The notes below the pieces were generated by a model. That model had not been told where the DNA came from. It searched no databases and saw nothing but the letters and a program-made list of their open reading frames with translations. A stretch of DNA of 62,508 bases, counting the filler, from Collodictyon triciliatum (Eukaryota): the NCBI GenBank assembly GCA_043381765.1. It is 6 parts of 6 records of this genome, joined end to end, with 100 filler letters (N's around TTAATTAATTAA, not from the genome) between each part and the next. Parts side by side here need not be neighbours in the genome. Positions count along the whole stretch, not along the records: positions 33,346 to 44,349 come from JBHJMP010002505.1; 5 more parts are not named here. One strand, 5' to 3'. The number at the start of each line of letters is the position of its first letter. The stretch's first letter is position 1. A program made the translations under genes and the position numbers. Positions 3,101 to 57,572 of this stretch are shown piece after piece.

Positions 3101-5498
3101 AGTCGAGCCAGCCAATCCATCATATTGGCACATCCTTGTAAGGGATTGACTAAAAATCGTGCACTCATAAATATAATTAGACAATCCTTTACGAAAAGAT
3201 GGACTATGACGAAGAATTAAAGAATGCACAAAAGCAAATGCGTCTGCTTCTTGCGGATGAAGCGGGTATCTAATTATTGTCTTGAATTTTTGGAGTCTCT
3301 CTTTTTTGTATTGTGTAGAAAAAAGTACTTACTGTGTATTTACTATTTACTATTTTTCCTTTTTCCTTTTTCCTTTTTCCTTTTTCCTTTTTCCTTTTTC
3401 CTTTTTCCTTTTTCCTTTTTCCTTTTTCCTTTTTCCTTTTTCCTTTTTCCTTTTTCCTTTTCCTTTTTTCCACTAAATCACTTTCACATTTTCAACTCAT
3501 AAATAGGCTCAGAGTCGAAGAAGCCTAGTGTTTTCTCAAGAACAGCGCGTCTTTTACTATCAATCAACAACACAGCCCTGCTTGAACCGATATTGTTGCA
3601 CGATGCATCGACATCTGGAAGGAGGTATTGTTTCATTGCTTTTCACACAACACATGATTTATTGTTAGCCTCACTCGGAGTGACATGTTTGCACATATTA
3701 ACATGATACTATATCTAATTTTTTTTTCATACGCCCCATGTAATATCCACGACCATAATTATCTTGGTAAACTTGCCAGAAAATAAGTGATATACTTAAA
3801 TATCGGATATTTTTAACATCCCTTCTTTTTCTTTTCATTCTTGTCTTTGTGACCAGCGCCGATGTATGTATAATGCTCGGGAAAATGTATGCTCTGAAGG
3901 AAGATTTCCAAAAGGCAGAGGAGTGCTTTCAGGAGGCTTCATTAGCATCCCCGAAAAATTTGGATGCGAGAATTGAATTAGGTTTGTTTGTAATAGTTTA
4001 TCAATTGGGTGACTCAGAAAATTACAGCTTTTTTTTTTAAAAAAAAAATGTATTGGGATAATTATATATGAGCGCACTATGAATTCTGTAACATGAGAAA
4101 AGGATTAGTTTTATGGGTATGTTTTCATGTTCAGGACATGTCCAGTTCAAACAACACAAATTTGAAGAAGCAAAATCATCATACGAGGCCATACTTTCGA
4201 TGGAGCAAAGTAAAGCATTCTTAAGTTTTCTACTGAATTTATTTGAAAGACAAGAAAATTCCAGTAAGATCGACCATTTCCCCCTTTCATAAAACTAATT
4301 AATATATATATACAATTTCAGCATGTTGATTCATTTTTCTTTTACTACAGATTGCCAGAGATTAGATGTTTTGAGCCGCTTAGCAAAGATATACTCTCTT
4401 CAAGGAATGTTTGAGGATGCTAAGGTGCGGGCTGTTATATTTTTTTCTTTCAGCTGGATAAAATGTAATTTCGATAAAGCTACCGGTTTGAAATGCGAAC
4501 AACTTCTGTTGACTTTTTTTTTCTCCTTGGGTGCAGGATTTGTTCCTGAACTGTTGTCAAATATCACCTACATCACTCTCCTGGCTGGGTGCCGGTGCCG
4601 CTTTGTATAAAATGGAACTGTATGACGACGCTGAAGTGGCTCTATCGGTACATGAATAGTCTTTTTTTTTTCACAGCTTTTTTCCCACGTGATATTGATT
4701 GTATATGATAGAGACACCCTAAATATCATCTTAAAATTCTACTTTTTTTTTTCTCGCAAAAGCATTCATATATGTAAGGATGATGTCTATAGTTGAACAG
4801 TCTCTGTCTGAAAATGAACTCTGCTTTGAAGACTTTTTTTTTTGATTTTTGCTGCTATACAGGAAGCAAACATTCTGGATAACCGTAATCCGGACACATG
4901 GTGTCTACTCACGCTATTAAGTCTCAAAACTGGTCGTGATTCGGAGGCCGACCGATGCATGCGTCAGGCGCTGCGCTTCAACCCATCCAACGCAGCATAT
5001 CTTCGGTATAACTTCATCAAAAGTACACAAGGCGTTAACGGCCTCGGGTTTCATGAAGCCACTTCGGCTAGTCTTGAAACGGCTTTTTTCATCTACAGGG
5101 AACTAGGATTTCTTTACAGCGCAAGAGGGAAACTGGAGGTATCTGAAACATGCCTTCGACGGTCGTTGGAGGTCGAAGACACAGACGAGACAAGGATTTC
5201 TCTGGCAGACGCACTTCTAACTAAAAATGATGCCGAACTTGTCGAAGAGGCAGCCATGCACTATGACTGGGTTTGACAAACATCTCAGCTGACATATAGC
5301 AATGAAGTCTCGTGAATATTTCAATATTTATTATTGTCCAAATCTTCTCTCCCATCTTGATTACACAGTCCCATCAAGGTATTCATTCATCAACATTACG
5401 ACTTTTTACATATTCAGGTGATTCAAAACTCTGAGAAAGAGGAGTTCAGGCAGCGAGCGCAAACCGGCATCCAAAGCATCTCTGCTCGAGTTAGATAG
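106..5498 (+). CDS. CFAP70: Cilia- and flagella-associated protein 70 (TTC18), multi-exon, 5' part missing
   Basis: Spliced exons give FELNSSGKYLVFKEKIRRAVASVVKE, LYVYLMEQMHSSINK, LLRLSEEAE, then TPRs (SWLGAGAALYKMELYDDAEVALS/EANILDNRNPDTWCLLTLLSL), matching the CFAP70 pattern. Stop TAG at 5496-5498. Confidence 0.85.
1788..1838 (-). mobile_element. Tiny poly(A) retro-insert, copy A
   Basis: TATGAACTAAGCTTT at 1788-1802 and 1824-1838 flanks the reverse complement of ACTTTGAATCGAATAAAGGAA; lies in a CFAP70 intron. Confidence 0.8.
2876..2968. repeat. (AAAC)n microsatellite, intronic
   Basis: Tetramer run. Confidence 0.95.
3353..3470. repeat. (TTTTTCC)n simple repeat, intronic
   Basis: Heptamer run; source of the spurious FSFFLFP ORFs. 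Confidence 0.9.
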
Positions 5499-6111: not shown

Positions 6112-6640
6112 TAAATTATACACATGTTTCCTTGAACTCGGTCGCTTATTACTTTTTTCTCTGCTTGAATTTCGTTTCTTTGACATGTTCTTTACCATCA
6201 CCAAAGCCACCGGTGCAGTTTTGATGAAATATTCACCATGAAACCCGTTGAAGATTTATACAGATACTCAGAGATGGTGACTTCATTCGTTGAGGTTGGA
6301 TGGTTGCTTCTGTTCAGAAACTTTGACGCCCGATGTCATTGCCTCAGATGATGTGGATGATTATGAAACATTAAAGAGACGGCGTTTCATATGGCCTTCA
6401 GGAGTAAAACAAAAACCTTGCGTAACCCACGATACGAATAGTAAACGCAAAGGCCTGTCGACATTTGTGATTGAATCCGATACTTTGTCGATTGCTGTGG
6501 AGATTGGTATGAAACAGGCCACGAATATTTGATCATAAGATTTTCGTAGCTTACACTTGTATTTTTTCACCTTCGTTCAATTCAAAGTCAGCATACTCCT
6601 GAGTTTAATATTCTCATAGAACGGAGAAGTTTTCTAGGAA

Positions 6641-8557
6641 ATGAGAGTCCATCTATCAGACTTTGAATGTGAAGAGTCGGATGGTGCAATGAAGAAGGAG
6701 GCGTGGATACATCATTCACAGCTCCAAAAAGATTCTGCAATAGAAGATCTGGATGATTCAGGAGGCGGTGCTGTTGATCAAGTTGCTACTTCTCATTCTG
6801 GGGGAGAAAAAAAACAGGATGATGGAATAGAAAAGGCTCCCTCCGAGCAAAAAAAATCTATGGATGCACTGTCTTCTCAATTCTTAAAAGAAGAGGAACT
6901 AAGAAAAAATAATCGAGCTAGACTCTCATTGAAAAGAAATACGAAAGAGATCGACAAAAGAATAACAGTCATATCGAGCATTCTTGGTAATCAAAAGGCC
7001 TACAGCTTTATTATATCCGTCTTCAAAATGCCAGCGACCAAATATACCACGTGGATTGTCTGGACTGTGTGCCATACTTTATCTTTGTCGGTTTGTTTTC
7101 AAGAAAAGCTATTGCCAGGAGATGTTTACCTAGCATTACAAATATTTTCGCTATTATTTTTTTCGACGCATCATTTTATCTTCATTAGAATAGGAATACT
7201 TCGAGAGCTTGCAAGGTCATTCAGCTTTTGGTTTACTATTCTGAACTCCCTATCTTTCCATTTATGCCTTCTGCTTCTTTGGGGGCCAGATGATATTGCC
7301 ACATCATGTGCGATATCTCATTCGCTTTCTACCATATTGCTTATGCTTATATTCTACGATGCTCATGCTGCGAAGAAAAGCAAGGCCATGAAATTTACTT
7401 TAGTCATTGGAGTTATCACTCTATTGATAATATTAGCCATCCTTACCTTTGAATTGGTGACGTTTCGCAACGAAAACATACACGCGAAAGACGGTCTTGA
7501 GTTACTCAATGTGCGGTTGACTGCCATAGACAATTTGACTACGTTGATGGTTTACTCACTAAGAATTATCTTCAATCACATAATACAAAAAAAGACGACG
7601 ACTATCGCATTCTTGTCGCGGTACTATGAACTCGAGATTAGAGATTGTTCGCAATGTTTACAAATCGAATCTGAACAAGATGCAAGTAAAAACCAAAAAA
7701 AATTAGCTGTTCCTCCAGGCGATGAAAAGTTGAAAGATGATTCTTATCCCATAGAAGGGGCTCCTAACATTGGAGATAGAGAAACGAAACCTGGAAATAA
7801 TCATTCATTATCAAATAACGAAAAAAGTCAGAAGACGAGCAATAAGCTCACCGTAGGAATCATAGAGGATAAGATTATTGAATATGATTTACACGAGACG
7901 TTATATCACTCAATCATCAAGCCAAAGTATCCAAAGTTGGCTGCTCTTCTAAGTTCTAGATGGTATAATAATTCTGGGATTGTTATCTGTGTGATATCAC
8001 TATTATCAGGATTTCATCTTGCTATCGGAATAGAATCCCCACATGAATATGAGTGGGTCAATTTACATTTCACTTTGATAAGTATTGTATTCATGGTTGC
8101 GCAAATAAGCTGTACGTGTAACATTTTTATATTGAAGAAAACATTCCGTTCATTTGACTTCTGGTATGTTATTTATCTTCTTTCAAAGTTCTTTTTCTCT
8201 GCTGGGCTGCTTTGTAATTGGGACGGAAGAGTAATATTCTGGGTCTTTATTATCATATCAGTAATTTGGTATATGCTAGTAGACTCGTTCAGCCCAAAGC
8301 ACAGAAGGCTATCTTACATTTCGATGATAGGTTGCATCGTTATGGTGGCATTTTTTACCCTGAGCAAATTGAATATTGGAGATACATTTGCAAGGGATAG
8401 GTATATATACTTCAAAGAGATTCCCATAATGTCTTCACGAGTGACGTTTTCGACCTCTGCTCTTTCAACGGGCGTGTTCTCTTTCCGCTTTTTTTGGAGC
8501 TACATTCAGAATCCGAATCGATATTTATTCATAAACAAGAACGAGCAAGTGGTATAG
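6641..8557 (+). CDS. Intronless 638-aa multi-pass membrane protein with two related halves
   Basis: Long ORF with two hydrophobic blocks carrying related motifs (ILRELARSFSFWF, ILKKTFRSFDFWY) separated by a hydrophilic linker. Confidence 0.8.
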   Translation: MRVHLSDFECEESDGAMKKEAWIHHSQLQKDSAIEDLDDSGGGAVDQVATSHSGGEKKQDDGIEKAPSEQKKSMDALSSQFLKEEELRKNNRARLSLKRNTKEIDKRITVISSILGNQKAYSFIISVFKMPATKYTTWIVWTVCHTLSLSVCFQEKLLPGDVYLALQIFSLLFFSTHHFIFIRIGILRELARSFSFWFTILNSLSFHLCLLLLWGPDDIATSCAISHSLSTILLMLIFYDAHAAKKSKAMKFTLVIGVITLLIILAILTFELVTFRNENIHAKDGLELLNVRLTAIDNLTTLMVYSLRIIFNHIIQKKTTTIAFLSRYYELEIRDCSQCLQIESEQDASKNQKKLAVPPGDEKLKDDSYPIEGAPNIGDRETKPGNNHSLSNNEKSQKTSNKLTVGIIEDKIIEYDLHETLYHSIIKPKYPKLAALLSSRWYNNSGIVICVISLLSGFHLAIGIESPHEYEWVNLHFTLISIVFMVAQISCTCNIFILKKTFRSFDFWYVIYLLSKFFFSAGLLCNWDGRVIFWVFIIISVIWYMLVDSFSPKHRRLSYISMIGCIVMVAFFTLSKLNIGDTFARDRYIYFKEIPIMSSRVTFSTSALSTGVFSFRFFWSYIQNPNRYLFINKNEQVV

Positions 8558-24007: not shown

Positions 24008-27000
24008 ATGAGGATTATAATAGCTGTGATTTTGGCGATACAATTTTTACTGTCACTTTCATATAGCAGGTAAGAGCTTGCACTTATTACTTTCATTTTA
24101 ATACCCCTAAATATAAATTTACCATAAAGTGCGTGCAAGTATTCCACGCAAGATCTTCTCGAGATGGATAGAAACAAGGCGTTTCATATTTTGCTTCATT
24201 ACTACAAAGATAGTTGTTATGGGCTGAATTTCAAGGCAGAAAAATATGAAGGCTTCGAGAGTAATATTTTCGAGGCGAAAACGCAAATTCCTATACTCGA
24301 TAGTGATTGCAACACAATTTTTTCAAAAAATGAGGACATGTATCAAATATTGGCACCCTATAACGTTTCATCTAAGACAGCCATTGATGAAGAGGAAACT
24401 CCAAATATATTTATTAAGGAAAAGGAAACCACAAATTACTTTATCTCTGATGAATTGCACCCAGAGAGGAGAGATAATATTGATACAAGTCCTACAAATC
24501 ATGCCGACTACAAAGTTATGATGGAGTTATATGACCTTTTGGATGGAAAAAATTGGTTTCAAAATTATGGTTGGGATAGTGAGGATACACCCGTTTGCGA
24601 GTGGTATGGAGTTTCATGCAAAAAATGCTCAAAGTATGATACGGATTTACAGGTACCTTTTTTTTTAAAAAAAAAAAAAAGAAAAAGAGCTCAATTGTAT
24701 GTTAAAATTATAGTTTTGGCTTAATCTCTTAAAAATTTAGTATGGAAATTTCTCGGTCAGGTGCTTGGAGCTATCTGGAAATAATCTCATCGGCAACATT
24801 TCTGAAGTGTCTCGTGCTATTAAGGGATTTACAAACTTGACTGTGGTTGACTTCAGTAATAACAAGATATATGGAAAGTTGCATGACTTTGACCTACCTA
24901 AGATGATACTTTTGAATTTGTATGTAAACGAGTTGACAGGAACTGTTCCTGATTTTCAAGGAATGCCAAAAATTAGGCATTTTGAAATCGATGGAAACCC
25001 CTTGGAAGGTACAGTCCCAGATTTTTCAGGCATGCAGAATTTAGAATACTTCTGGGTTGGTGCCACGACAAAGATTTACGGTGAAGCTCTGTCACACAAC
25101 AAAAAGAATCAAACAAAAAAAAATCAAACAAAAATATTCACACAAAAATAATCAAATAAATGAACAAAAAATATTGTTTTAATTTCCATCCGAACCTATT
25201 CAGGAACTCTCTACAACTTTTGCTGCTTACCAAACGTTACAGTGTTTGGGATTTATGGAACCAGCATTAGTGGTATATTCTCCTATTTATTCAATATGAT
25301 ATTTTTTTATCTATTCGATTCAATTTTTTGAATATGATATAATTGATTCGAAGAACAAAATTTTCTAGGTACAATTCCAAACTTTACCAAGTTAAAAAGA
25401 ATCACTCGAATAAGCTTCTACGGAAACAAACTTAATGGTAAACAAGCGCCTTTCCCTTTTCTGAAATTTTCTCCTTTTTGTATTCTTTCTTTCAATTTTG
25501 TGCAGGATGGTGGAGGTGTTGGCTTTTCTGAAATTTTCTTAAAAGTGATATTCTCATTTTGCGCAAAATGAACTCTATTTCTTTTGAAACCATAATTACA
25601 GGAACAATACCTGATTTTGAGCATATAAATACATTGAGGATATTCGACATCACAAATAATGACATTTCAGGTATAATTTCCTACATGAAAACACGATTTG
25701 TGATTATTTCGGTAATAATCAGTTGTAATCTACAGGTACCATTCCCAACTTCAAGAATCTCGGTAATCTGAATTCGATCAGTTTGTCAGGAAATAGATTG
25801 CAAGGTGCACATTTTCATTTGACCATACATTTTGGGAAAAAAATAGATAATATCTTCAACACTTTGTCTGTAAGGACCTAATCGAAGAAAAATGCAGGAG
25901 AAATCCCTCAATTTGACAACTTAAGAAACCTCAAAAAATTTGCATCAGTTAGAAACTCTCATGAAGGCAAAATTCCGAGTTTTGAAAAGTGCCCCCTTAT
26001 TGAAAACATCGTTATTTTCATGAATAATTTATCTGGTTCTTTGCCAAGATACTTACCCCAAAGTGTTCTGAAGCTTGACTTTAGTGAAAATAACATATCT
26101 GGCCCTATTCCAGACACTTGGAACATCTCGTCTATTCAATATATTGACCTTTCAAAGAACAAGCTGAACGGCACAATACCTCCAAGCTTTTCAAAATTTT
26201 ACAGTCTAAGAACTTTGATTTTATCTGGAAACAAGTTTACTGGTCAATTCCCAAAAACCTTTTGGAACCTCCCAAGCTTATCATACATAGACATAAGTTC
26301 CAACCGATTTTCTGGAAATCTGGGAGCCTTTATAGCCCCTCCGTTCTTGGAAAAGAATACAAATTATTCTTATGAAACTCTCATTCTTGATGACAACCAG
26401 ATAAGTGGCGCTCTGAATAGCTGGATTTTTACTTACGTCAGGAATGTCAAGTTTTTAAGCATCCGAAACAACAACATAAATCGACTCGGAGACATCTTTG
26501 TTTTATCAGAATGGAGGAGACTAGACTTATCTGGTAATCCGATATATGGAGCCATACCCGAATCATACAACCGATTCTCTAAATTGGAGTTCCTAGGGCT
26601 AAAAAATACCACCTTGAACCACGGAAACATGAAATTACTCCCATCATTTATGGAGGCTACAAATTCGTATACCTTACAAGACTCTACAAATTCTTTTTTG
26701 TGTCCGTTAGTAATATCGAGAGCCAACGCCGTGGAATTAAGTGTTTATTTAGATCCAGAATACTACAATCACACATTATGTCGATGTCTTCCAAACTACT
26801 TTGGCTTTGGGAATCAATGTCAACTCTGCTCCTCCATGTGTGACTGCAGTAATGGCAAAGTTTTACGAAAATGTTTCGCATCACCAAACCCGTATGGTAT
26901 GACGGCGATTGTCCCATGTCCAAGACCTGAATCTTGCATTACAATAATGCCTGAAATATCTTCAGACACTACGGAGCCGCCTAGGACAGTTTCAACATGC

Positions 27001-28643
27001 GAACGAGGCTATGAAGGGAGAGCGTGTTCAAAGTGTCAAAAAGGATATGGAAGACAAGGTCGTATGTGCGTCGAGTGCCAGGATGGTTCTTTATACTCTA
27101 CTCTTATTATTGGTCCAATAGGTTTCGTCATCTTAATAGTATACCTATTTTTGACTGAACTAAGTACATCAGGTATTATTACTCTATTTTCAGAATAATC
27201 GAATAATATTACGATCATATTTCTCTAAGAAACGTATTCTTATCGTTAGCCAAGCTTCGAATCGTCCTTTTCCACATGCAAACGTTGTCAATATTATCAT
27301 CTGGAATTACGGACTCTGAGGGTTCAAACAAATTCATCGAACTGTCTTTTTCTTTGGGTTCGATTCAGCTGCCAAATTCAGACTGCATTCAAGGGTCAAC
27401 CGAAATATTAAATTCGCTGTTGTTTAGTTTCTCGAGAATCCCTCTTTTCATAATCGTTGGCGCCATATGTTTTTTGTTAAGCCGCGGCAACACACCCAAT
27501 AAGGTTAAATATAGAAATAGTACAAATGTATGATATTGTAATATGCTGATAACCAGATTATTAAATTTTCACATCGATCGGTGTTTCATCATATTTTCTC
27601 TAAATTTTTCTTGGTGGCTAATGAAAGGTTGTATTCATCACCATCAATCTGCTATTTTACATCTACTACTCGATTGCAAAAGAAGTATTTGGCGTCTTTG
27701 GGTGTACAGTTTACGATGAAGGGGAAGGAACATGGTATCTTAACAGTGCCCCGTGGGTTGCATGTAGTCCTGCCTCAGAGGAATATAAAAGCTTGATAGG
27801 AGTAGCCATTGCAGTATTCATCTTTTTTTTGATAGGATATCCAATTTTCATCTGGTGGGCGATTAAAGATATGCACGAGTACTCGAGTTATGATAGCAAA
27901 ACACGCTATGGATTTCTGTACTTCCCTTACAAAGAAGTATGATATACTGGTTTTTTTTTTTATTCGTCCTTTCAATCAAAATTATGCTCTATTAGAATTA
28001 TTTGCTTAGAAAAAAAGTTTTTTTATGATTCCGGCTTCCAATTGATGCTTTGGACTACCGTTTCAACATCTTTATCGGACTTGTTTTTCTATTCATTTCC
28101 TTTAAGAGCTATAGGTACTGGGAATTCGCAATCATCCTCCGTCGTATCGCCTTTTCCTTCGTGATGGGCGTCGTTCCTTACACAGAACCTCCAGTTTTCT
28201 TCCTTTTGATTATCATTATAATTCAAGTAAAGGCATTTTTATGGAATAACTCCATGAGTCTGGTTCAAAAGAAAATCACACATAAATTAAGTATAAGTGG
28301 TTGTAATTGAATTGAATAAAGAAAATTCGCAATCGCTAAACTATAACATGTGGGCTAGGTTTCTCTTTGGAAACACAGCGATCACTACCCATACTTATCG
28401 AAGGTTGATAATCGATTGGAACTATCAAGCCTCTATGTGATTTTCATTTCGTTCTTCTTGGCCTTGCTCTCAAGCTTTATTGGCCACGAGCTCTGGATTA
28501 CAATAGTTTTAGTGGTCATTAATTTTATTTGGCTCTTATATGGTGCAATTAGTCCTTTTTTGGTGCCGTATTTACAAGGAGATAAGCGCATCAATTGGAA
28601 ACTTGTTGAAATGAAAATCTTGACCAGGAGACGAGTTCTCTAA
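24008..28643 (+). CDS. LRR ectodomain + Cys-rich region + multi-pass TM receptor-like protein
   Basis: Signal peptide MRIIIAVILAIQFLLSLSYS; LRR cap WFQNYGWDSEDTPVCEWYGVSC; LxLxxNxLxGxIP repeats; CERGYEGRACSKCQKGY; TM region with RYGFLYFPYKE and YWEFAIILRR. Confidence 0.85.
25293..25340 (-). mobile_element. Tiny retro-insert, degenerate copy C
   Basis: AATATGATAT at 25293-25302 and 25331-25340 flanks TTTTTTATCTATTCGATTCAA...; intronic. Confidence 0.55.
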
Positions 28644-30972: not shown

Positions 30973-32349
30973 ATGGTCAAGAAGTACTCCAAGATCCCCA
31001 AAAACGTCGAGAAGAGTGAGTACCTAACTGCCCCCTTTTCATTTTATCTTGCTCACCCCTCTGCAAGCCCTGAACAACACAAGGTCTGGACATCATCGAT
31101 AAGGCACCAATTACAGAATGGCGCTGGAATGAATTAGGATTTTATCTATTTCGGTGAGGAGGTTTTGGGCATTTTTGAATCAAGTATCGTGCCTATCGTG
31201 CTCCGATGGATTATTCAAACGAGGATTTAAGAAATTGTTGCCTAATTTTGCCAACTGAATAGAAATCGATCACATTTGGCACAATAAGGCCATTCCTTGA
31301 TACTGATCATCCAGAACCCCACTGCCACTCCATTTCAAGGGAAACACTCACCTCTTTGTGTGCCCATGTTGTCGGTTACAGACTCTCAGAGTCCCAATGA
31401 TCGAATCTGTTGAGATCACACCAAACCACACGCGATCTAAGCTTTACTGGAAGGCACAGGTCATAGCACTAGTAGCTTCCCAGCAAGGAGCAAGTCAAAC
31501 AACAAACCCGTGGCCTGAGCAGATCCTTTCGTCTTCGACACTTTCACTGCGAAGCCTTAGACCCTCTGAAATCTCGCCTCTATCTGACCTCACTCTCCTT
31601 CTCACTAGGCTGCAAGGCTAGCGGCTCTGACCTCCGTGTTCACTTCAAGGTAATGAAACCTCTAACCCCCCAACTTAAATACACACCAGTTTCTCACAGA
31701 AGTTGCCAGAAGGCCTGCGCTGTGGAATAACACGTTATCTTGCCCTATAGAACACCCGCGAAACCGCCGGAGCCCTCAAGGGACTGAAGCTCAAGGAGGC
31801 CCAGAGCTTCCTCAAGGACGTCATTGCCAAGAAGCGCATCGTCCCCTTCCGTCGCTTCAAGGGAGGAGTTGGCCGCAAGGCTCAAGTCAAAGGTACCGGA
31901 GCCACTCAGGGACGCTGGCCCGAGAAGTCTGCCCGCTACCTTCTCTCCCTGCTGGAGAACGCCCAGAGCAATGCTGAGGTAGGACTGCATGAAACCCCCT
32001 TCTCTCCTCCACGCAAGTCCACGGGTCAGACGTTCCAGTCCACGACGAGTGAACGTGGACAAAGCACTGTGAAAAGGGCACTGGCTAATCAACCAACTTG
32101 TCTCTGTTCGACTAGGCCAAGTCCCTGAACCTGGACAACCTCTTCATCTCCCACATCCAAGTGAACCAGGCTCAACGCCAGCGCCGCCGCACATACCGCG
32201 CCCACGGTCGCATCGGGCCGTACGTGTGCAGCCCCTGCCACGTGGAGATGATCCTGACGGAGAAGGTCAAGAACATCAAGGTTGCCTCTGCCCCTTCAGC
32301 CCCCTCCAAGAAGGCCCCTGCCAAGACCATCGCTGAGACCACGGCCTAA
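30973..32349 (+). CDS. RPL17: 60S ribosomal protein L17 (uL22), 4 exons
   Basis: [41 protein letters not shown]/..[28 protein letters not shown]. Confidence 0.97.
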
Positions 32350-35190: not shown

Positions 35191-35737
<547 letters not shown>

Positions 35738-38719: not shown

Positions 38720-39165
38720 TCGAGTGAGAGAAAAAAAAGGTCGTGTGTATGCACCTTTGTGAGCAAGTTTATTCGGTCCTATCTGGCCTTGGACTCTACC
38801 TGTTCCACTTATCTTACGCACTGTTTTCTTTTGCTTTTTTTTTCTTTCTTTCTAGATAGTCTTTCATCCAGATTACGATTCCCATATATTGGCTTTACAA
38901 CTGGGTGGTTTTCTGTTAATTTTAGGATATTTTAATGGTCGCTGGAATGATAAGTTTTTTCTCTTAATCGTTTCTCGTCTGACCTGGTTTGCATAACATC
39001 AACTCTAGCTAACTTCACAGCCTCACTATCTGGGACAACGGGACTGTAAAAGATAAACGGAAAAAAAATATTGTAGCCAAACACGCAACACACAGGCAGA
39101 TTTTTTTCACTAAAATAAAGGTGTCCAAACAAGAGTAAGTTTCTTTTGAAAAGAAGAGCCTACAC

Positions 39166-42100
39166 ATGGATTTGTACAATATCAAAGACGAGGCGATCAC
39201 CTCACGGAATGCAACCAAGGTCGTCTCGAAAAAGTAAGATTTTGATTCTTATATCTTTTATTTTTGAAATGCTATTGTGAATTAAGAATAAAAAGCCAAA
39301 CTGAAGATATGAGGCGCTGTGTGTAAACAAGCAAAGAAACAATTCAATTGTATACTTTTTTAAAAAGGGGATTTAATCCATGGTTAAACCCTTGACTTTG
39401 TCTCTTATAAAACTCAGTATGTGGCAAGCCAGAATATTTCTTACCTTTTATCATGAAATACATTATTAGCAAGAATGAGATGAAGTTCATTCCAAGTCAC
39501 ATTCAAAAGACCATGCAACAATTCGAGGTGAAGAAATTTATGACAAGAGCTAATACACAAATGACATTTTTATTTGTCCTTGCCATATTGTTAAACGCGA
39601 TTGGAAACCTGTAAATGAAGAGAAAATCGCCAATGTGAGAGCGAGTCAACATAATAATGAGGTGATTTTTTTTATCAGAACAATGAATTGGACGATGGCA
39701 GTCAGGAACAACCAGAAACGATTATTCCTCCTTCGAATAGATTTCATGAGTTTCTAATATATTTTGTTGAGGTAATATCGCATATTTACTCTCCTTTTCC
39801 AGGAACTGCAGCATTGCGCGAGCCTATATCTTCACTTATCAACATTTTTTTGATATTTTTCTTTCGTTTTTATCAATCGCTTTACATTATGTACTTAGTA
39901 TGCTTACAAACTCATTGAATTCCAGACAAAAGGATTCTCCAATTTTATAATGGGCTGCATTTTGGTGAATTCGATTCTACTCGCCCTCGAGGTAGACCCC
40001 AGCACCACAGAAACTGCAGCACAAGTGTACTCTGTAAGAGATAAATACGAACAAACTACAAACAAACTACAAACATCATAATACAAACATCATAATACAA
40101 ACATCATAATACAAACATCATAATACAAACATCATAATACAAACATCATAATACAAACATCATAATACAAACATCATAATACAAACATCATAATACAAAC
40201 ATCATAATACAAACATCATAATACAAACATCATAATACAAACATCATAATACAAACACACATTTAAACATACATTTAAACATACGTATAAAGAAATTTAT
40301 TAAGAAAATGAAAGAAAATGCGACAAAACTTTACTAAAGCAAGTATATACGATTTTGCACACCACATTTGAAAAAGGATGTCATTCTAAAATCCTTTGTT
40401 TAAATTTATTCTTCAGTTAATGGACGTAGCTTTTCTCGTAATTTATACTATAGAATTGGTTTTGAAGAATTACGTCGATTTCAAGGCAATTATTTTACCA
40501 AATAATCATACTTTATCCAGATAAAAATGATATGTCAGTTATGATATTATGTTTCCTCGTATTCGATTCAATGGAAGGAAGGGGGGGTTTATATTTTTTT
40601 TTTATCACTGTTATGATACTATGTTTAATATTATCTTATGTATTCCAATTGTTGATAATGATTAAGGCACATATATTCAATGACTAATTTCCCACTTAGT
40701 ATCATATCAATCCAATCGGCCCTTTCGTCCTTTCTCAAAGAAAAAATAAAGCGATAAAAACAAAACAAAAATCTCGCAATCCTAATTTAGAACCGAATGG
40801 TATAGGGGTATTGGTCCAACAACTTCAACAGATTTGACGCGCTCGTTCTATTCTTTTCATATATCACACAAGTCAACGTGTTTAGTTCGCAAGGAAATTT
40901 CAGTGTTTTTCGTATTCTTAGAGGTAAACATCGAATGTTCATTCTTCTGTTAAAAGAGTATCGACTAATCATTTGTATATTCATATGGTAAACCCTGTTT
41001 TCCTTTCGTTGAATGAAATACAATTTTCTATTTACTAATTTTACGATATCTCTCACGTTCCTCCGCCGTTAATTAAAGCATTTCGAGCTTTCCGTGCGTT
41101 CAGAGGAGTTTCTTTCATTCGACCTCTTCAAGTAAGATGGCTATCAATTCCCTCTTCACTACGCACACACACGTATGAATAAGTGATTGCAGATGCGCGA
41201 TATGATGACACTTTCCATCGAATATGATTTCTCCATCTAAGAAGCATACCCAATTCTATGTATAGGTCATTGTCACAGCACTCATTAAAACTTTTGGCAG
41301 CATCATCAATCTAATTATGCTCATGTTGCTATTTATTTTTGTCTTTGCAATAATTGGCATCAACTTCTTCGGGAGCAATGAGCTGACATTTGATGATTGG
41401 GGAACTTTGGGGAATGCTATGTACACTCTTTTCATTTATGTCACGGTATGTAATCTCATACATAAAAGCACTCTTCTAGTTCAAAACTGTCACTTGCATT
41501 TTTCTTTAGCAAAGAAAGTAAAATAAAGCCCATACAAAAACCAGTCAAAGGGAACACGCGAACTCTTATATTAAATACCGATAATGCAGGCAGACAATTG
41601 GAGCGACATACAGTCAAGGATGGATGAAGCATATGGACTTGGAAGTCGTTTCTACAGTGTTCTCTTTATATTCATAGGAAACCTTATATTTACAAATCTT
41701 TTCATTGGAATCATTATTCAGGTTTGCAGGGCACAGTCACGAAGTAGTACTAGATTTTTTACAATTTAATTCCTCATTTTGATCATATTTTTATACACTT
41801 AGTAACTCTTTCTTTTTTGGGTCGTATGTCACATTTGTAGAATCTGGATGAAGCAACTGAAGAGGATAAGCGAATCCAAAAGCTGAAGAGGCAAAAAGTA
41901 GTCGCCAGAAAGAAAGCTTTCATTGAGGAGAGACAAAAGCGTGACTATGAGAAACTATTGGCCAGAAAAGTAATTCATCTTTTGGCTCACAATTCTTCTT
42001 GTTCTTGTTCTTGGTCTTGTTCTTGTTCTTGTTCTTATTCTTGTTCTTCTCTATACGTATTAGTGAACCTAATTCAGTCTGCGATGAAATAAAAAAAAAG

Positions 42101-42620
42101 AGAGAAAGAGGTCTTTCTATTCGACAAAGTGTGACATCAGGAACAACTACTGATGCATTCTTTTTATCTTAGAAAATTAACCCTGGCGCTGATATCCAAC
42201 AAATTCTTGGTGACATGGTTGGGCGCCTTCCACACAACGACATGGTTCCTATGAACCACATCGGCTGCAATCTGAAATGGATGGAGGCTTATCTTATCGG
42301 CTTAAATCACCAGGTATGTGTTTTCCTTCACACGCACACGCTCTCAAATGCTGCTGTTTTTCTTTCCTTTTCTTTATCCTTTCTTAGCACTCCACACGTC
42401 CCTGGTACCTCCGTTTATCACATGCCATTTCCTCCTTTGCGAGGACCGCAAGAAATCATTGCATACTTACAATCTCAAACCACAGGAAAATACCATGTAT
42501 CGGTGCCAACAAATTCACTTTGAGATTGCAACAACATTGGCAGAGTTTGTGGAACGTCAATACCAATTGCAGAGGAATCCGGATGCCAGAGAGACAGGCC
42601 CCTCCTATCGATACAACTGA
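39166..42620 (+). CDS. CATSPER3: CatSper-family (CatSper3-like) 6TM cation channel subunit, multi-exon
   Basis: S4 FRILRAFRAFRAFR; pore LFIYVT|ADNW (CatSper TxDxW); S6 FTNLFIGIIIQNL; tail MEAYLIGLNHQENTMYRCQQIHFEIATTL parallels CatSper3 IDIYFSTLDYQDTTVHKLQELYYEIVHVL. Confidence 0.85.
40071..40256. repeat. 14-bp minisatellite (AAACATCATAATAC) x13, intronic
   Basis: Head-to-tail identical units with no spacers. Confidence 0.95.
40538..40626 (-). mobile_element. Tiny retro-insert, degenerate copy H
   Basis: GTTATGATAYTATGTTT at 40538-40554 and 40610-40626 flanks CCTCGTATTCGATTCAA...; intronic. Confidence 0.55.
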
Positions 42621-42911
42621 AGAAGAAACAGACACACAGCAAAACAAAGCAGCCTCGTGCGCCACACAATCCACAGAGCTGCCCAATAGAAAACAACTCC
42701 GCCCCTCCCCACGCCTTGGCCCCCACCAACCCAAAGGTAGTGGAAAGAAGAGATTTGAAATAATGCCAACTGGCCGCACTTTCAGCCCCGCGTCGACACT
42801 TGAATTAAATGGCAAACCTCTCAATTTTAGTACCATGAATTTAGAAAAAGAAACTGTACTTGTCTACTGGCGAAGCGCGTAGCAAACGTGTCTGCAGCAA
42901 AAAAACTGAGA

Positions 42912-42984
42912 TGCTTCCTAGCGGAATCGAACCACTGATCTCTCCCTTACTAGGGGAGCGCCTTGCCGTCTGGGCCAAGGAAGC
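42912..42984 (-). tRNA. tRNA-Thr(AGT)
   Basis: Cloverleaf GCTTCCT..AGGAAGC-A; anticodon arm CTCCC-CTAGTAA-GGGAG; GGTTCGATTCC T-arm; oligo-T Pol III terminator just downstream. Confidence 0.95.
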
Positions 42985-43360
42985 TTCCTGACCATACAAG
43001 GATTTGTAAGTCTCTCTATATTACCAATACCGTTTTCTTTTGTGCTCTGTTGGGTTATCTTTGAGCTGGACTTCGGCGATGCGAAAAACAGCCGGCTGCG
43101 GTGTCTGACAACAAAATACTTATCTGGCATCAGTTGCCAAAGCAACAACCATGCAAAAAAGCTATGCGAGCTAATACTTAACATTCCGACTTTGACAAGA
43201 GGAAACTCATAGTCAATATATAGATAACAAGAAAGGTAAGTGTCCACACGGTCTCATATTCACATAGCTGAGGTATTTTTTTCCCACTAAATTAAGCTAA
43301 AATGGTGCAATGAAGATTTCATGTCTAACAGTTTGTATTTTGCGGGTTCGTTCTTTAATT

Positions 43361-47553: not shown

Positions 47554-48468
47554 TCATACAAATGGGGCACAGTTTCGGCCTTGAGCGCACTCCATTAGAA
47601 GGGCCCATTGGGAACGTAGTGTGGCGTTTTCAGCAACAAGGAGATCGACAGAGCGAAGGAGCGAGTTGTGCGTCTCCATCAGACCCACAACCTCCTCCTC
47701 CAACTGCGCAATCCTCACACGAGTCCGAACCCGTGACCGGAGCGAAGCCATCCGGTTGTGCGCCCGCCGATTCTTTCGCCGAATCATTGCAACCTCTTCT
47801 GGACTCTGTGCCTGCGATACATCCACCCGAGGCCGTCTTTGCCGACTTTCAGGCCGACCATCTTGGACAATAAAGTCAAATCCTTTTCTTCTCTTCTCGT
47901 CGGTCTTTGACGGCAAACTCGAGCCAGCTTCGTCCTTTTGCGTCGGCACTGCTGACGGTGTTGATATTCCTGCTGTTGAGGTTGGTGCTGCAGCTCTTAG
48001 TGATGGTGTCGATGTGACCACTGCCGCTGTTGATAAAGGCGTAGTGGAAGATGGCTTCGGTTTCGTTATGGATGATATTGGAGCTGCGATGGAAGAGATT
48101 GGTGCTATCAAAGTTGTTGGTGTTCCCATGAGTGGGGTTGGTGTGACCAGCGAAGACGTTGGTGCTGCATATGCAACATGGGAAAGAGAATAGTCTCTGT
48201 GAGATAGGAAAAAGTCGCCAGTTGGTTGGTGAAGCGCGGTGGGCTGTTCGGTGTCAGAATCGTCCGAATCAGACGCAAAATAATTTGAGGACAACTGCAG
48301 AGGCGGCAGAGTCGCCTGTGGCAGTGATGATGGGAAAAGTCGCGCAGTGTTTGTGGCGAAGGAATGCAGGGACAGTTGTGCCGTTTGCTGTTGCTGTTGC
48401 TGTTGTTGTTGCTGTTGTTGTTGCTGTTGTTGGCTCGTCGGGAAGTAGGACGGAAGCAGGCTCATCAT
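47554..48468 (-). CDS. Intronless bZIP transcription factor (poly-Q, S/T/P-rich, C-terminal bZIP)
   Basis: RRAHNRMASLRSRVR basic region (N-x7-R) followed by L/I heptads. Confidence 0.88.
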   Translation of the reverse strand: MMSLLPSYFPTSQQQQQQQQQQQQQQQQTAQLSLHSFATNTARLFPSSLPQATLPPLQLSSNYFASDSDDSDTEQPTALHQPTGDFFLSHRDYSLSHVAYAAPTSSLVTPTPLMGTPTTLIAPISSIAAPISSITKPKPSSTTPLSTAAVVTSTPSLRAAAPTSTAGISTPSAVPTQKDEAGSSLPSKTDEKRRKGFDFIVQDGRPESRQRRPRVDVSQAQSPEEVAMIRRKNRRAHNRMASLRSRVRTRVRIAQLEEEVVGLMETHNSLLRSVDLLVAENATLRSQWALLMECAQGRNCAPFV

Positions 48469-48887
48469 TCTTGCAGGAGACTTTTCGCCGTCGGCTGCCT
48501 CGGGAAAAGTCTGTGTGGTGCGTTGTGCAATCTATGAAGAGAAGTGCCGGGTGTGAGGAACAATCGCACCGGGCGATAAGTTGTTGGAGATTTATCTTTG
48601 GCGTCGGTATCTCGTGGATATCCAGACAACCACACGGTGCGGAAAAGGTGGCGAAGTGTGCGGATTAATCGCATGTTTCGGACTGATTGTTCGGTTGGGA
48701 GGAAAGGCTCAGGCGCAGGAATCGCACAGCAATTGGGCTTTGCTTCGCGGATGCTGCTGCCGTGGGCGATTAATCTCTGGAAAAGTACTCGAACAATGTG
48801 TGCAAGCCGCTGAGGGTTTGGCACCACCGGGCTTAAGCTCATGCGGCATCGTTGTAGCCCGACACATGATTCAAGCCGCGATTTGGG

Positions 48888-49497: not shown

Positions 49498-52279
49498 TCA
49501 AGGCTGGAAGAACTGATTAACGAAGGTCATGATGAGGAGAACAACGCCCAAGACAACAATAAGCAGATGTGTGATTTTTGTCAACAGCGTGTCCTGCCCC
49601 AGCATGCGAATGGAGCTGAAGTGGACGTGAACAGGCAGATAAAAGACATATGCCAGGCCGCAGACAGCACCAAGACAACTGGATTGAAAAGTAGTGAGAT
49701 GAGGTTAAACATACATGGGCGGAAATGGGGTTTAGCTAGATAAGGCAGATGAATTCAAGGATTTACCTGAGGATAATTCCTATCTCGATGTTGCTGATCG
49801 AAATCACCACAGAAAGTGCCATCAGCATTATATTGAGAGGAACAAATTGCCTGCGGGTAACATCCTTGTGGCCCAAGATGTTGACTGAATACGGATGCAT
49901 AGCCAGATATCATGTTTGGAGTTGTTTTTTATAAATTTTTTTATTATTATTTCTAGACCTTTTATCAATTGGTCTTCCCTCTGTGTCAGAGTGAGATAAG
50001 CAAAATAAAACAAAAGATGACAAAAAATCAGAGGACGAACCAAATAGCTGTGTTCTCACAATATACAGCAGAAGGGGATAGATTGTAGTCAGCTATAATC
50101 AGAGAGATATTTAACAACGTAGAAAACATAGAAGCCAATCACCACGCCGCAAACGACGCATAGTGTCAAATAAAGCCACCTTTACATTTAACTTAATTTT
50201 TTTTGATAAAAAAAACCTGAAAGAGAGTTCCCGAGCGAGCCACAAATGCATATACATCTCCAATTTCAAACATATCAAAGAAATTGGACTCAATTTCGTC
50301 GGCGGTATAGGCAAGGTTCGGAAGAATACCCACAAGCTTTTGTAGACCGGCATTGTGGAAGAGGGTTGTAAATAAAAAAACAATTTCACAAGGATGGTAT
50401 GTCAGTTTAAAAAGATATCAATAAAGTTTCTGGCGGGTGTGTTTTTACTTTTCTTCTTTCGATATAATATTTCATACATTCTTTTTTAAAAAAAAAATCT
50501 AACCAGATAGGATAATCCGACACACAAGTAGCCAATACAAAGATCTCTGGTATTTTTCGTCTGGTCTTTGTTTGATTTCATAATGCTAATGATGATGTTG
50601 TGAATAAAGAAGCCAACCATCATGATACCACATAGACTGATGAAACCACCCGACGCAAGTACAACATTGCTACCAAATCGAACACCTTTTGGAGATGTGA
50701 AACTCTTTACCACGAAAAACACCAGCATGAAAATTACGTTTACAATCCCAAACTGGTTGAATTTCAATAGAGCAGTGATTTCTGTCATTAGCGTCAGAGG
50801 GAATACGGCAGCAACCATGACAATCGGTGCGATGGTTCTTGTCCAATATTTGGAGTCTGGTTCCTCGAAGCCAGAGGGCGAGCCCTCCGACCAAAAGAAA
50901 AACATACTCACAAAGTCGAACAAACTGGCGCTCATGATGATAATATAGACTACACTAACACCAGCCATCAGTGCCACAGAAGCAATGAGGCAAACAGTAC
51001 GACCTCTTGGACCAATATAGTGGCGGCATGCATCCGCAAAGTCATCAAATTTTCCAAGAGAATGCTGCAAGACTAGAGTACACGAGTAGAAGCAAACAGA
51101 ACCAATCAACGTGATGATACCGATGCCCACAAGAATGCTGGAATACATGATTTTGTGTAAGTAGCAAAAGAAGATGCGAACAAGTAAATAATCAAGAAAA
51201 CGAAGAAAACAAAGTTTAAGACCGACGAGGATGCAGTTGAGTCTTTACTATAATGGCTTAATCTTTTTTTTAATCAAAAAAGTATTCAAACCCGCTCTCG
51301 CTAAAGGCCCATGGAAGAGCAAGTAACCCGGAGCCCATCATTGTATTCCAAATGCTGAATATTGTTGTCAAGCTACCGACTTTCTGCCCAGTTGTACTAG
51401 AAAGAAAAGACGAATCATTCATGTGATTGTTGACTAATGATTTGTGATTTAGAATCAAAATGCTTCTTTTTTTTTTTAAAAAAAATAATAATAATTATAA
51501 TTCAATATTTATCCATAGAAGATGACAAGTATTTGGCGAAAAAAAAGAGACAGATTTAGGACAACCAAGTTGCACGACTCGTTTTTAACTTACACGTAGG
51601 GCACGTAAAGGTCGGCAGGAAGAAGATGGCGAGGTGGATGAAACAGGTCAGGCTGAGAAGGTGATAGCATCTGATAGTATCTCAGTTTGGAATGCAGCAG
51701 ACTGTCCCTCTCAGGGATGAATGGACGACGCAATCGGTTCTCTTCATTGGCAGAGTTGTCTGAGCGACCTGTTTAAGTGTATAGACTGGTGATTTTCCTC
51801 CTTCGGTTGATATTGTAACAATCGAATGTCTTCATAGCAATATAAAAAAAAAAGGCAGTGGAGAAAGACGTACAAATCAGAAAAGACGAAATGAGAAGAG
51901 AAATTGATAACAGAGAAAAAAAAGAAGGGGAAATGCTGTTTTTTTTCTATAATGAAAAATAAAGAAATATGCGTAGGCAACATAATTGATGCAAGAGAGA
52001 AATAAGCAAAACGAAGGGTCTCTACTGGTGCCAGATCTGAGAAACATGGATTTAGACTGATCGTGACTCACTGGACAACGTTCGAGGGCTGCCTGGACGG
52101 TAGCTTGGCGGGCGGTAGTTTGGGCTGGGAGGATTCGAGGTATTTGGGCCGGCAACACCGAAGCCTTCCACGCCATATGACTCGGGGCGGTGATCCTCAG
52201 AGGTCCGGGTCAGTTGCGGCGAGTTCCTTGCCGGGCGCAGAAGCGGCTCGCGCTCTTCATCGTCCACGTTGACGGACAT
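49498..52279 (-). CDS. SLC38A9: Lysosomal amino-acid transporter/sensor SLC38A9-like, multi-exon
   Basis: EREPLL dileucine signal; KLRYYQML..PPRHLLP; SLTTIFSIWNTMMGSGLLALPWAF; GFFIHNIIISIMKSNKDQTKNTRDL. Confidence 0.85.
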
Positions 52280-55683: not shown

Positions 55684-57572
55684 GGAGAAAAAGAAAACGA
55701 AAAACACAATACAGAAGATCCTCTGCAACACAAGCGGGCTTTTGGAAGAAAGCCTGAGGACAGGACTGCCCGACACAAAACCGTTGTCACAGGCGATGGA
55801 ATACCGAGCCATTCGTTTGGCAAACGAGCTCTTTGAGCAGCATTGTGAACAGGCAAGTGGAATGTTCCTTTATTTATCAAAGGAAGTCTTTCATTTTTGC
55901 CCTTTGTAAGTGTTCAAGAAGCAATACAACTTATGAAAAGTGATATCTTTTTATACCAAGTAAATAGTATAAAAAGACATCAAAAAGAAAAAGCTAAAGA
56001 CTAAAAACTGAAAGAAGAAAAAGGAGAGGTTTATAATAGAAATGAAGGCAGATGGAATCCCATTAATATATCAGCGATAGATATATGTGATTTTCGAGCA
56101 ACTGGACAGATGTATTGAAGAAAATATCCAACCTTGGTTTCGTCTTTTGGACTCTCGTGAGGGCGACATAATCAACCTAGTATTTTTCTACCATTATAAA
56201 AAAAAATATATGTCCTAGAAGATAAAATCGTACAGCCTAGTTCATCAAAGTTTTATTTTTATAACCATCCAATATTGTGGAATATGATTGACATGAATGC
56301 GCACATTTGTTTGCTAACATCGAATAGTGAAGGAATAAAAAAAAAAAGAAGAACATGATACATTCTATAAACCAGCCATATTAACCCTAATTATCTTTTG
56401 ATATATTGAAGGCTTTGGATACTCGTTTGTGCCTCCAAAAGCCATTCGCTAGCGCAGAGATTCAGGTCGCACAAATTCTGATAAAAATGAACCAGGCTCT
56501 ACAAAAGAATGGGAGGATAGTTGCATCTCCAAAACTTAGTAGTGATGGCAAACCAAGGGTTCCTGTACCCATCGATACTGTTCGCAGCAGGATTTTCTGT
56601 TCGATGAAAGATGTCATTTCCATCAATCTCCCGACTACTGATTTTTTTAGCAAAATGCAGTGCAGTTTTCAAACTTCCTACATCAGCAAAACTTTGCAAG
56701 CAGGTGATATCTGCATTATATCCGGTGGGTTCCCCGAAATTGATTTTCCTGTACTCTCTATCCAGAAACATAAACAGTTCGTTGGGGAGCGAGGTGTCGA
56801 TGGTATACAATTTAACAACCCAGGAGGACTTTGCGTTCACCCAATCACTCAAAATCTTTACATAGTGGACAACATAAATAACCGTATAGTTATTATTTCG
56901 CCTTCATTTGAATTGATTGGATACATAGACTCGAAAAAAAACTCGAAGCTATGTTTGAGGGATCCGATTGATATTGACATATCTGTGGATGGCAAGTTGT
57001 TCGCTATAACAGACGGCTCGTCCAAACTTTTATGGCTTCTCGATGGAGACGGAGAAATATTAAAGGTTATTGAACACGATGAAAGTTTTCCCTCCGACAA
57101 GAGGTATTCACACAGTGTCTGTTTCGATTTACATAAAAACATATATGTCTCGCTCACAAAGATGGGGTTTATTCACAAGTTTTCGCCAAGTGGAGACCTT
57201 ATTATGAACCTTGGTGAAATTCGCCCCCAGGGAAACGAAATACGATATCAAGGAATCACAATCAACGAAGAACATCAACTACTGGCTTCAGCCCAAGATT
57301 GCGATGTTATACATGTTTTTAACTTGACGGGTTCTATAATCAAAAGTATTGATATCCAAAAGACTGGAAATAACTGGACATTTCTTGCTCGTGGAACCGC
57401 TGGTGGATTTGTGATTTCGGACTGTGATACATCTACAGTATCTTTTTACAACAGACATGGGAAAAAAGAGCACCAGATCTCTCTCTTATATCCAACGGGA
57501 ATATGCTTCATGAACAAAGGTGCAGGCTTCTTTGCAATATCCTGTGACCAGTGTTCTGTCTATCGCTATTAG
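55684..57572 (+). CDS. NHL-repeat (beta-propeller) protein, 5' part uncertain
   Basis: Large last exon with QFNNPGGLCV..LYIVDNINNRIVI, LRDPIDIDI and LLYPTGICF. Confidence 0.75.

Follow-up and report, generated by a model that had tools for sequence, protein, structure and literature searches.

CatSper is known above all as the Ca2+ channel of sperm that is required for male fertility. The question raised by the locus described here is whether its CatSper3 subunit is genuinely encoded in the genome of Collodictyon triciliatum (NCBI GenBank assembly GCA_043381765.1), from which a stretch of 62,508 nucleotides, consisting of joined parts of that assembly and referred to below as the window, was analysed. 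An initial annotation of this DNA had placed a CatSper3-like subunit of an apparent protist at positions 39166-42620. The results presented below indicate that the protein encoded there is very probably a CatSper3 orthologue, in a small freshwater eukaryote which also carries axonemal genes.

An intact and transcribed gene

The gene is located on the plus strand at 39166-42620 and consists of 12 exons that specify a protein of 427 amino acids (aa), with the ATG start codon at 39166 and a TGA stop codon at 42618-42620 (Table 1). The exons were picked by eye on the genomic letters and were then joined by script to give the 427-aa model. Ten of the 11 introns are of the GT-AG type and one (40486-40805) is GC-AG, with lengths ranging from 119 to 383 nucleotides (nt). 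Public sequencing runs, in the form of Logan contigs, were searched with the 3455-base stretch and four of them were aligned to window positions 38900-43000; as these runs are represented by contigs, no statement on expression level is possible.

Spliced contigs bridge all 11 introns in run X2, seven of the 11 in run X1 and two of the 11 in the freshwater metatranscriptome X5. At the GC-AG intron, the X2 contig joins 40483 to 40804, which is equivalent to a junction of 40485 with 40806 given that three letters fit on either side, and the same junction is crossed by the nearest database relative (P0001), which reads NYVDYQGYW at this point and is also continuous across the N-terminal exon junctions of the model. 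At the 3' end, the poly(A) at 42824 is positioned 15-20 bases 3' of an ATTAAA signal in the X1 and X2 contigs. With 11 of 11 introns bridged and a poly(A) end recovered, it follows that the gene is intact, transcribed, spliced as modelled and polyadenylated. A candidate further exon of 39 nt, located between exon 2 and exon 3, was rejected, since it introduces stop codons and since the cDNA joins exon 2 directly to exon 3.

A number of smaller features of the transcripts and introns were recorded. The 5' ends of several cDNA contigs, the longest of which begins at 39007, are preceded by adaptor-like letters which we take to be the template-switch oligonucleotide. Ten letters present in the X2 cDNA between this adaptor and the first window-matching base are absent from the whole window; the genome at 39007 reads ...ctctAG, and the ten extra letters may stem from a short leader, from a difference between strains or from an upstream exon that falls into a gap. 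At 42619-42621 both cDNA runs are one GAA short in the GAAGAAGAA stretch overlapping the stop; as the stop is unaffected, this is considered a strain or allele difference. Unspliced pieces from X1 (39270-39525 and 40417-40923) correspond to pre-mRNA or DNA. Intron 4 contains a perfect 14-base tandem repeat of 13.6 copies (40068-40257), and intron 10 a TTCTTG microsatellite (41996-42048) on which more than 1000 unrelated metagenome contigs pile up and inflate the depth. The metagenome run X3 was set aside for this reason: nearly all of its 1005 contigs are unrelated and located on the TTCTTG microsatellite, while three short contigs fit unique sequence.

A single-repeat channel with a complete voltage sensor

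The protein is a channel made up of a single six-transmembrane (6TM) repeat, as confirmed by cDNA from the 5' untranslated region (UTR) to the poly(A) end. Five of the eight exons tested match the Pfam family Ion_trans and are collinear along its profile, exons 8 and 9 each exceeding the curated cut-off. Pfam KIX also gave a match to exon 10, which at 18.1 bits does not reach the cut-off of 27 and was judged to be a chance match on a charged helix.

The Asp-containing TADNW pore and the S4 segment with five regularly spaced Arg residues, both reported in the initial annotation, are present. The filter, T-A-D-N-W-S-D, is interrupted by an intron, with the T at the end of exon 8 (41443-41445) and ADNW at the start of exon 9 (41590-41601); this junction is bridged by cDNA contigs of X1 and X2, and the motif aligns with the TADGW of relatives. 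S4 reads RILRAFRAFRAFRGVSFIR, following the pattern R-IL-R-AF-R-AF-R-AF-R-GVSFI-R, that is, five Arg residues at every third position to which a sixth is added; it straddles the junction of exons 6 and 7 (40911-40923 and 41079-41122), which is bridged by an X2 cDNA contig. The usual aromatic and acidic partners are found in S2 (YTIELVLK, containing Y-x-x-E) and in S3 (NRFDALV, containing the Asp), and these would be the residues of charge transfer, as in voltage sensors generally. From these features, we infer that the protein would be sensitive to voltage.

Mammalian CatSper3 (mouse, 7EEB chain C; human, 9UBW chain C) has in common with the C. triciliatum protein the 6TM repeat, a T-x-D-x-W-x-D filter and a homologous C-terminal domain. 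The two differ in the filter itself, where mouse CatSper3 reads DGW when aligned from the Asp and the C. triciliatum protein has TADNW, in the N-terminus, which is unrelated to that of mammalian CatSper3, and in S4 with its five evenly spaced Arg residues and the sixth.

Assignment to CatSper3

The strongest single argument for CatSper3 orthology is provided by the C-terminal tail. A tail profile (A2) was derived from the post-S6 tails of nine relatives, and it includes neither a membrane segment nor any sequence of the window. When compared with 177,635 solved sequences, A2 produced mouse CatSper3 (residues 280-385, E 8.1e-16) as its sole significant match, the next one being unrelated at E 0.37, and CatSper1, CatSper2 and CatSper4, which share the PDB entry of mouse CatSper3, were left unmatched. 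Residues 299-413 of the model, a C-terminal domain of 115 residues, score 143 bits on this same profile (E 2e-46), thereby bearing out the CatSper3-type tail proposed at the outset. Of the 231 proteins gathered, 48 have the CatSper3 tail, and these include neither a bacterial channel nor the rows for CatSper1 and CatSper4.

A second line of evidence is supplied by exon 9, encoding most of the filter and S6, for which the best solved structures are mouse CatSper3 (E 6e-6) and human CatSper3 (E 8e-6), followed by a value of 0.01; CatSper2 and CatSper4 are found at E 1.4 and 2.4, respectively, and CatSper1 is unlisted. For this exon the CatSper3 match is accordingly about 1000-fold better than that of any other solved chain. 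A word-indexed homologue search with exon 8 returned 36 candidates, none of them significant, and an exhaustive HMMER search with the 44 aa of exon 9 against 1.84 billion representatives recovered 79 proteins at E<=0.001. Many of these relatives align to the spliced model over approximately 350 residues, tail included, with 35-50% identity. The nearest, P0001, reaches 65.4% identity across residues 1-320 of the model, and when it was itself compared with solved chains it matched CatSper3 with 132.6 bits in one stretch, as against 96 bits for the best bacterial NaV and 85.8 bits for the best single repeat of a T-type Ca channel (the sole four-repeat chain with a readable alignment); CatSper1, CatSper2 and CatSper4 are absent from its best 60 matches.

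Similar results were obtained with a family profile (A1) assembled from 20 relatives. The 427-aa model scores 481.9 bits on A1 over profile positions 15-389 of 393, a score helped by the inclusion of the close relative P0001 in the profile. Among solved structures, A1 matches mouse CatSper3 with 295.8 bits in one stretch covering chain residues 27-383 of 395, compared to 204 bits for NaChBac and 161 bits for the best single repeat of the T-type channel, again the only four-repeat chain that could be read. The named proteins retrieved by A1 include the CatSper3-like proteins of Corticium (a sponge) and Xenia (a coral) and the CatSper3 of Blastocladiella; A1 also recovered proteins from Catenaria and Clytia, together with EukProt rows bearing the labels Rmarinus and Nk52. 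The designation CatSper3 or CatSper3-like is that of the source records for Corticium, Xenia, Blastocladiella and one JGI record. The relatives from Corticium, Xenia, Clytia, Blastocladiella and Catenaria and the rows Rmarinus and Nk52, which represent non-bilaterian animals, blastoclad fungi and protists, share the architecture, S4 pattern and tail of the C. triciliatum protein and are 36-40% identical to it over approximately 350 residues. A clear gap separates the last family member (288 bits) from the first bacterial channel (215 bits) on A1.

Phylogenetic position

A quick tree was calculated with IQ-TREE (LG+C20+F+G4 by posterior mean site frequency, PMSF; branch support by the Shimodaira-Hasegawa-like approximate likelihood ratio test, SH-aLRT, only) from 58 rows, comprising the model, 43 family rows, 12 bacterial-type channels and a single row each for CatSper4 (from Phlyctochytrium) and CatSper1 (from Hypsibius). 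Left out were fragments of less than approximately 300 aa, the rows P0016 and P0057, and P0085 and P0093 as near-duplicates. All 44 CatSper3-like rows, including the model, fall on one side of a branch with SH-aLRT support of 98, with CatSper1, CatSper4 and the 12 bacterial-type rows on the other, the latter 12 being grouped together with support of 100. The model, P0001 and P0134 constitute a trio (support 100; identity 61-65%), which is part of a 33-row group (support 96) that also holds the Rhodelphis-labelled Rmarinus row and is distinct from the sponge/cnidarian/Nk52 group and from the blastoclads.

Channels outside the CatSper3-like group resemble the C. triciliatum protein in several respects. 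CatSper1 of Hypsibius and CatSper4 of Phlyctochytrium represent partner subunits that have this fold, too, and whose S4 is Arg-rich, but they are without the tail, fall outside the 44-row group and, in the case of the CatSper4 row, exhibit approximately 29% identity and E 8e-34, as compared with E<=3e-44 for full-length CatSper3-like rows. NavAb, NaChBac and engineered CavAb are also single-repeat 6TM channels with a comparable S4 and are the nearest solved match to exon 8; these bacterial-type channels differ in lacking the CatSper3 tail, in forming their own group in the tree, in their filters of Glu or Leu-Glu-Ser type (in the natural channels) and in being homotetramers.

A number of results weigh against the assignment to CatSper3 or against its association with a flagellum. 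Exon 8 taken alone matches bacterial chains of the NavAb type (E 5e-7) better than CatSper3 (E 1.7e-4), and exons 10 and 11, when compared singly with solved structures, give no channel match, so that the tail is recognised through the profile. The tree is a quick one in which CatSper1 and CatSper4 are represented by one row each on very long branches, and it includes no CatSper2 and no named EukCat row. Furthermore, the transcripts of P0001 and P0134 stop soon past the equivalent of exon 10, without the distal CatSper3 tail; they may represent shorter isoforms or retained introns. Finally, the EukProt row labelled Nk52 belongs to the CatSper3-like family, and this label presumably denotes a non-flagellate amoeba, in which case the link between the family and flagella would not be a strict one.

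Distribution of S4 charges and filter motifs within the family

Among the 43 CatSper3-like relatives, the S4 stretch carries at least six Arg or Lys residues in 38, the sponge included, and most read LRVLRALRALRALRSISFIR or nearly so; the five relatives with fewer than six include the three cnidarian-group rows (four to five). The filter is more variable: TADGW is present in 26 of the 43 relatives, TADNW is found in only four of the 44 rows (the model, P0001, P0134 and P0075), and the two blastoclad rows, P0089 (Blastocladiella) and P0090 (Catenaria), have TSSGW, without the Asp. Across these rows an Arg-rich S4 is the family norm and no peculiarity of this genome.

In a paper of 2026, S4 of murine CatSper1 is described as having four Arg and two Lys residues, with progressively fewer charges in CatSper2 to CatSper4 (PMC13674862), and another paper names R151 and K154 of mouse CatSper3 (PMC7560727). 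A charge-rich ancestral CatSper3, followed by a derived loss in mammals, would fit the family alignment. The initial suggestion of an ancestral, more voltage-sensitive CatSper complex is plausible for the family and tentative for C. triciliatum itself, and it is weakened as a peculiarity of this organism, given that 38 of 43 relatives are alike in S4. The full S4 kept by non-vertebrate CatSper3 across the family bears on the issue of which subunits sense voltage.

Proposed mechanism and alternative readings of the channel

The following steps rest on what is established for voltage-gated tetrameric channels and for the CatSper of animals. A single pore would be surrounded by four repeats, and each filter Asp would join a ring that selects Ca2+; depolarisation would drive S4 outward and, by way of the S4-S5 linker, open the gate formed by S6; and the conserved cytoplasmic tail would serve in assembly or regulation. 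As in animals, the protein would form a heterotetramer with CatSper1, CatSper2 and CatSper4 in the flagellar membrane, where the entry of Ca2+ would steer the flagellar beat. By analogy with animals, and given orthology, a tetramer composed of CatSper1 to CatSper4 is the rather more probable arrangement.

It is quite unlikely, by comparison, that the CatSper3-derived subunit acts alone as a homotetrameric voltage-gated Ca2+ channel in the manner of bacterial NaV and EukCat channels, with no four-gene arrangement at all. A complete voltage sensor and a filter Asp are present in a sequence that in itself demands no partners, the S5/pore-helix exon is nearest to the homotetrameric NavAb, and CatSper3-like proteins are numerous in environmental data, as is apparent from the 79 representatives recovered with a query of 44 aa. 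Among the long open reading frames (ORFs) of the window there is, moreover, no gene for CatSper1, CatSper2 or CatSper4 or for the beta, gamma, delta or epsilon subunits, but such an absence from a single 62-kb window is uninformative and carries no meaning for the choice between the two arrangements. Speaking for a complex of several subunits, non-animal lineages with CatSper carry several of them together, as exemplified by the metamonad Carpediemonas, for which subunits alpha, beta, delta and gamma of CatSper are reported in PMC8516963, where Cai et al. 2014 is cited for three other protists. In addition, the CatSper3-specific tail has been kept from C. triciliatum to mouse, which fits a conserved role in one complex. 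An affiliation with another single-repeat family (EukCat or BacNav-like) or with two-pore channels (TPC), the likeness to CatSper3 then being convergent, is very improbable: the exon 8 match to NavAb and the Ion_trans family common to all such channels would be in line with it, but the cDNA-confirmed protein has one repeat of 427 aa rather than two, the bacterial-type rows are separated with full support, and a profile of the tail alone matches CatSper3 and nothing else among the solved sequences while no gathered bacterial channel possesses this tail. The exon 9 match, the tail profile, the tree and the single repeat consequently all agree with the CatSper3-type subunit of the initial annotation and not with a BacNav or TPC channel, with the proviso that the tree holds no named EukCat row.

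Nature of the host

Returning to the CatSper3 orthologue, the sequence of the window suggests a host with a motile axoneme, on account of a CFAP70-like TPR exon (Table 1), which upholds the earlier mention of CFAP70 as a sign of a motile flagellum. More TPR-looking ORF pieces lie upstream of this exon on the same strand, so that further exons are probably present from about 2400 onward. Near-identical pieces of the channel gene were found in freshwater metagenome and metatranscriptome contigs, which is one of the pointers away from an animal host.

Judged from the sequence alone, the host is probably not an animal. The competing explanation, that it is a small freshwater animal (micrometazoan) and the gene its ordinary sperm CatSper3, is considered unlikely, although some observations are compatible with it. 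In an approximately unbiased (AU) test, a clade uniting the trio with five animal rows was not rejected (log-likelihood difference 6.5, p 0.379), which means that the inner topology cannot settle the kind of organism; the nearest Atlas clusters of an NHL-repeat ORF in the window are mostly from animals; and an ATTAAA signal in AT-rich, microsatellite-rich DNA would suit an animal as well. The evidence against an animal is indirect throughout. A plant/protist-type histone H3 in the window shares a plant-type stretch of 12 residues with its best solved match, an H3.1, animals presumably reading differently there, and ORFs for plant-type leucine-rich-repeat (LRR) receptors are present, one of which matches LRRNT_2 right at its cut-off. 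The unconstrained tree places the model with the Rhodelphis-labelled row within the 33-row group and apart from the sponge and cnidarian rows, and the identity of the model to animal rows (36-39%) is lower than that to transcriptome and metagenome rows (43-50%). The two closest relatives derive from Trinity transcriptomes of EukProt, which is mostly a collection of protists, and the locus is compact with short introns. Of the initial proposal of a CatSper3 in a protist, the CatSper3-type subunit is thus retained, while the protist part is likely in view of H3, the LRR receptors and the EukProt relatives, yet tempered by the outcome of the AU test.

Relation to published CatSper genes

The occurrence of CatSper outside animals is already published, and the C. 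triciliatum gene adds a member, which for that reason is a good but fairly ordinary addition. One review traces CatSper back to an ancestor shared by apusozoans, animals and fungi (PMC7935092), the report on Carpediemonas being later, and Thecamonas, Allomyces and Aurantiochytrium are listed among the genomes searched in an eLife paper (PMC5362262). Among the papers listed in a literature search on CatSper in Rhodelphis, Picozoa and other supergroups, none mentions CatSper, which is a weak statement about the published record. That the family is so broadly represented in data from the environment and from protists is a modest extension of the published picture, and current views are not overturned by this CatSper3-type gene.

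As an expressed orthologue of CatSper3 whose voltage sensor is complete, the gene is a data point for an older origin of CatSper. It is a tentative and rather doubtful extrapolation that many free-living flagellates well beyond animals, fungi and apusomonads possess fully charged CatSper3-type subunits with the tail, the present organism and the rows labelled for a relative of red algae being examples, and that CatSper dates from or near the last eukaryotic common ancestor; if this were true, the low S4 charge of mammalian CatSper3 would be a late loss, and some lineages may use the subunit without the full animal complex. Mammalian CatSper is hard to reconstitute, and a compact gene with a coding sequence of 1.3 kb from a likely unicellular host is a candidate for heterologous expression.

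Other features of the window

The coordinates of the gene and of the remaining features are compiled in Table 1. Of these, the 639-aa open frame may be one real protein, which its low recognition score leaves in doubt.

Table 1 Features of the CatSper3-type gene and of other loci in the window
Feature	Position	Strand	Evidence and remarks
5' UTR	39007-39165	+	X2 cDNA contig begins at 39007 right after adaptor-like letters and continues into exon 1
Exon 1, start codon, N-terminal cytoplasmic part	39166-39233	+	Junction 39233>39470 bridged in X2; P0001 aligns from residue 1
Exon 2	39470-39527	+	Junctions bridged in X1 and X2
Exon 3, pre-S1	39679-39771	+	Gene model and cDNA
Exon 4, S1	39926-40033	+	Ion_trans profile positions 3-27; junctions bridged by cDNA
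Exon 5, S2 with Y-x-x-E and K	40417-40485	+	Followed by the GC-AG intron 40486-40805
Exon 6, S3 with conserved Asp and first two S4 Arg	40806-40923	+	Ion_trans positions 63-101; cDNA
Exon 7, remainder of S4 (FRAFRAFRGVSFIR) and beginning of S4-S5 linker	41079-41131	+	Model, cDNA and family alignment
Exon 8, S5 and pore helix, ending on the codon of the filter T	41266-41445	+	Ion_trans positions 118-185, 30.9 bits; junctions bridged in X1, X2 and X5
Exon 9, filter ADNW, turret, S6	41590-41721	+	Ion_trans positions 188-230; best solved matches mouse and human CatSper3
Exon 10, beginning of tail, charged helix following S6	41841-41969	+	Tail profile positions 1-115 correspond to model residues 299-413 (exons 10-12)
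Exon 11, tail motif RLPHNDMVPM...CNLKWMEAYL	42173-42313	+	Family alignment and tail profile; junctions bridged in X1, X2 and X5
Exon 12, tail ENTMYRCQQIHFEIATTLAEF and stop codon	42486-42620	+	Model, family alignment, tail profile and cDNA
3' UTR	42621-42824	+	ATTAAA at 42804-42809; X1 and X2 contigs have loose poly(A) ends at 42824
tRNA-Thr, anticodon AGT	42912-42984	-	About 88 bases beyond the poly(A) site of the channel gene, opposite strand
CFAP70-like TPR exon	4830-5273	+	Best solved match CFAP70, E 2.4e-7 (residues 1075-1125 of 1141); Chlamydomonas FAP70, E 5e-4
639-aa open frame, two blocks of hydrophobic segments	6638-8554	+	No Pfam family, no usable Atlas match
Plant-type LRR receptor ORFs	24128-27195	+	LRR_1/LRR_8, LRRNT_2 at cut-off, Cys-rich stretch, hydrophobic segment
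RPL17 (uL22) exon	31751-32125		Neighbour gene
Histone H3, intronless	35330-35734	+	Best solved match H3.1 with the same 12-residue stretch, 269.4 bits versus about 266.6 for the next common types
bZIP with poly-Gln run	47557-48531	-	Neighbour gene
Amino-acid transporter exon	50489-51244	-	Neighbour gene
NHL-repeat ORF	56391-57569		Nearest Atlas clusters mostly Chordata and Mollusca (scores 0.90-0.93), a weak lead only

An Rfam scan of the whole window identified one tRNA and no rRNA. The window as a whole is AT-rich eukaryotic DNA with a GC content of 0.27-0.46 in 2-kb steps, with many microsatellites and with assembly gaps (1188 N), and its gene layout is compact, about a dozen genes being accommodated in 62 kb.

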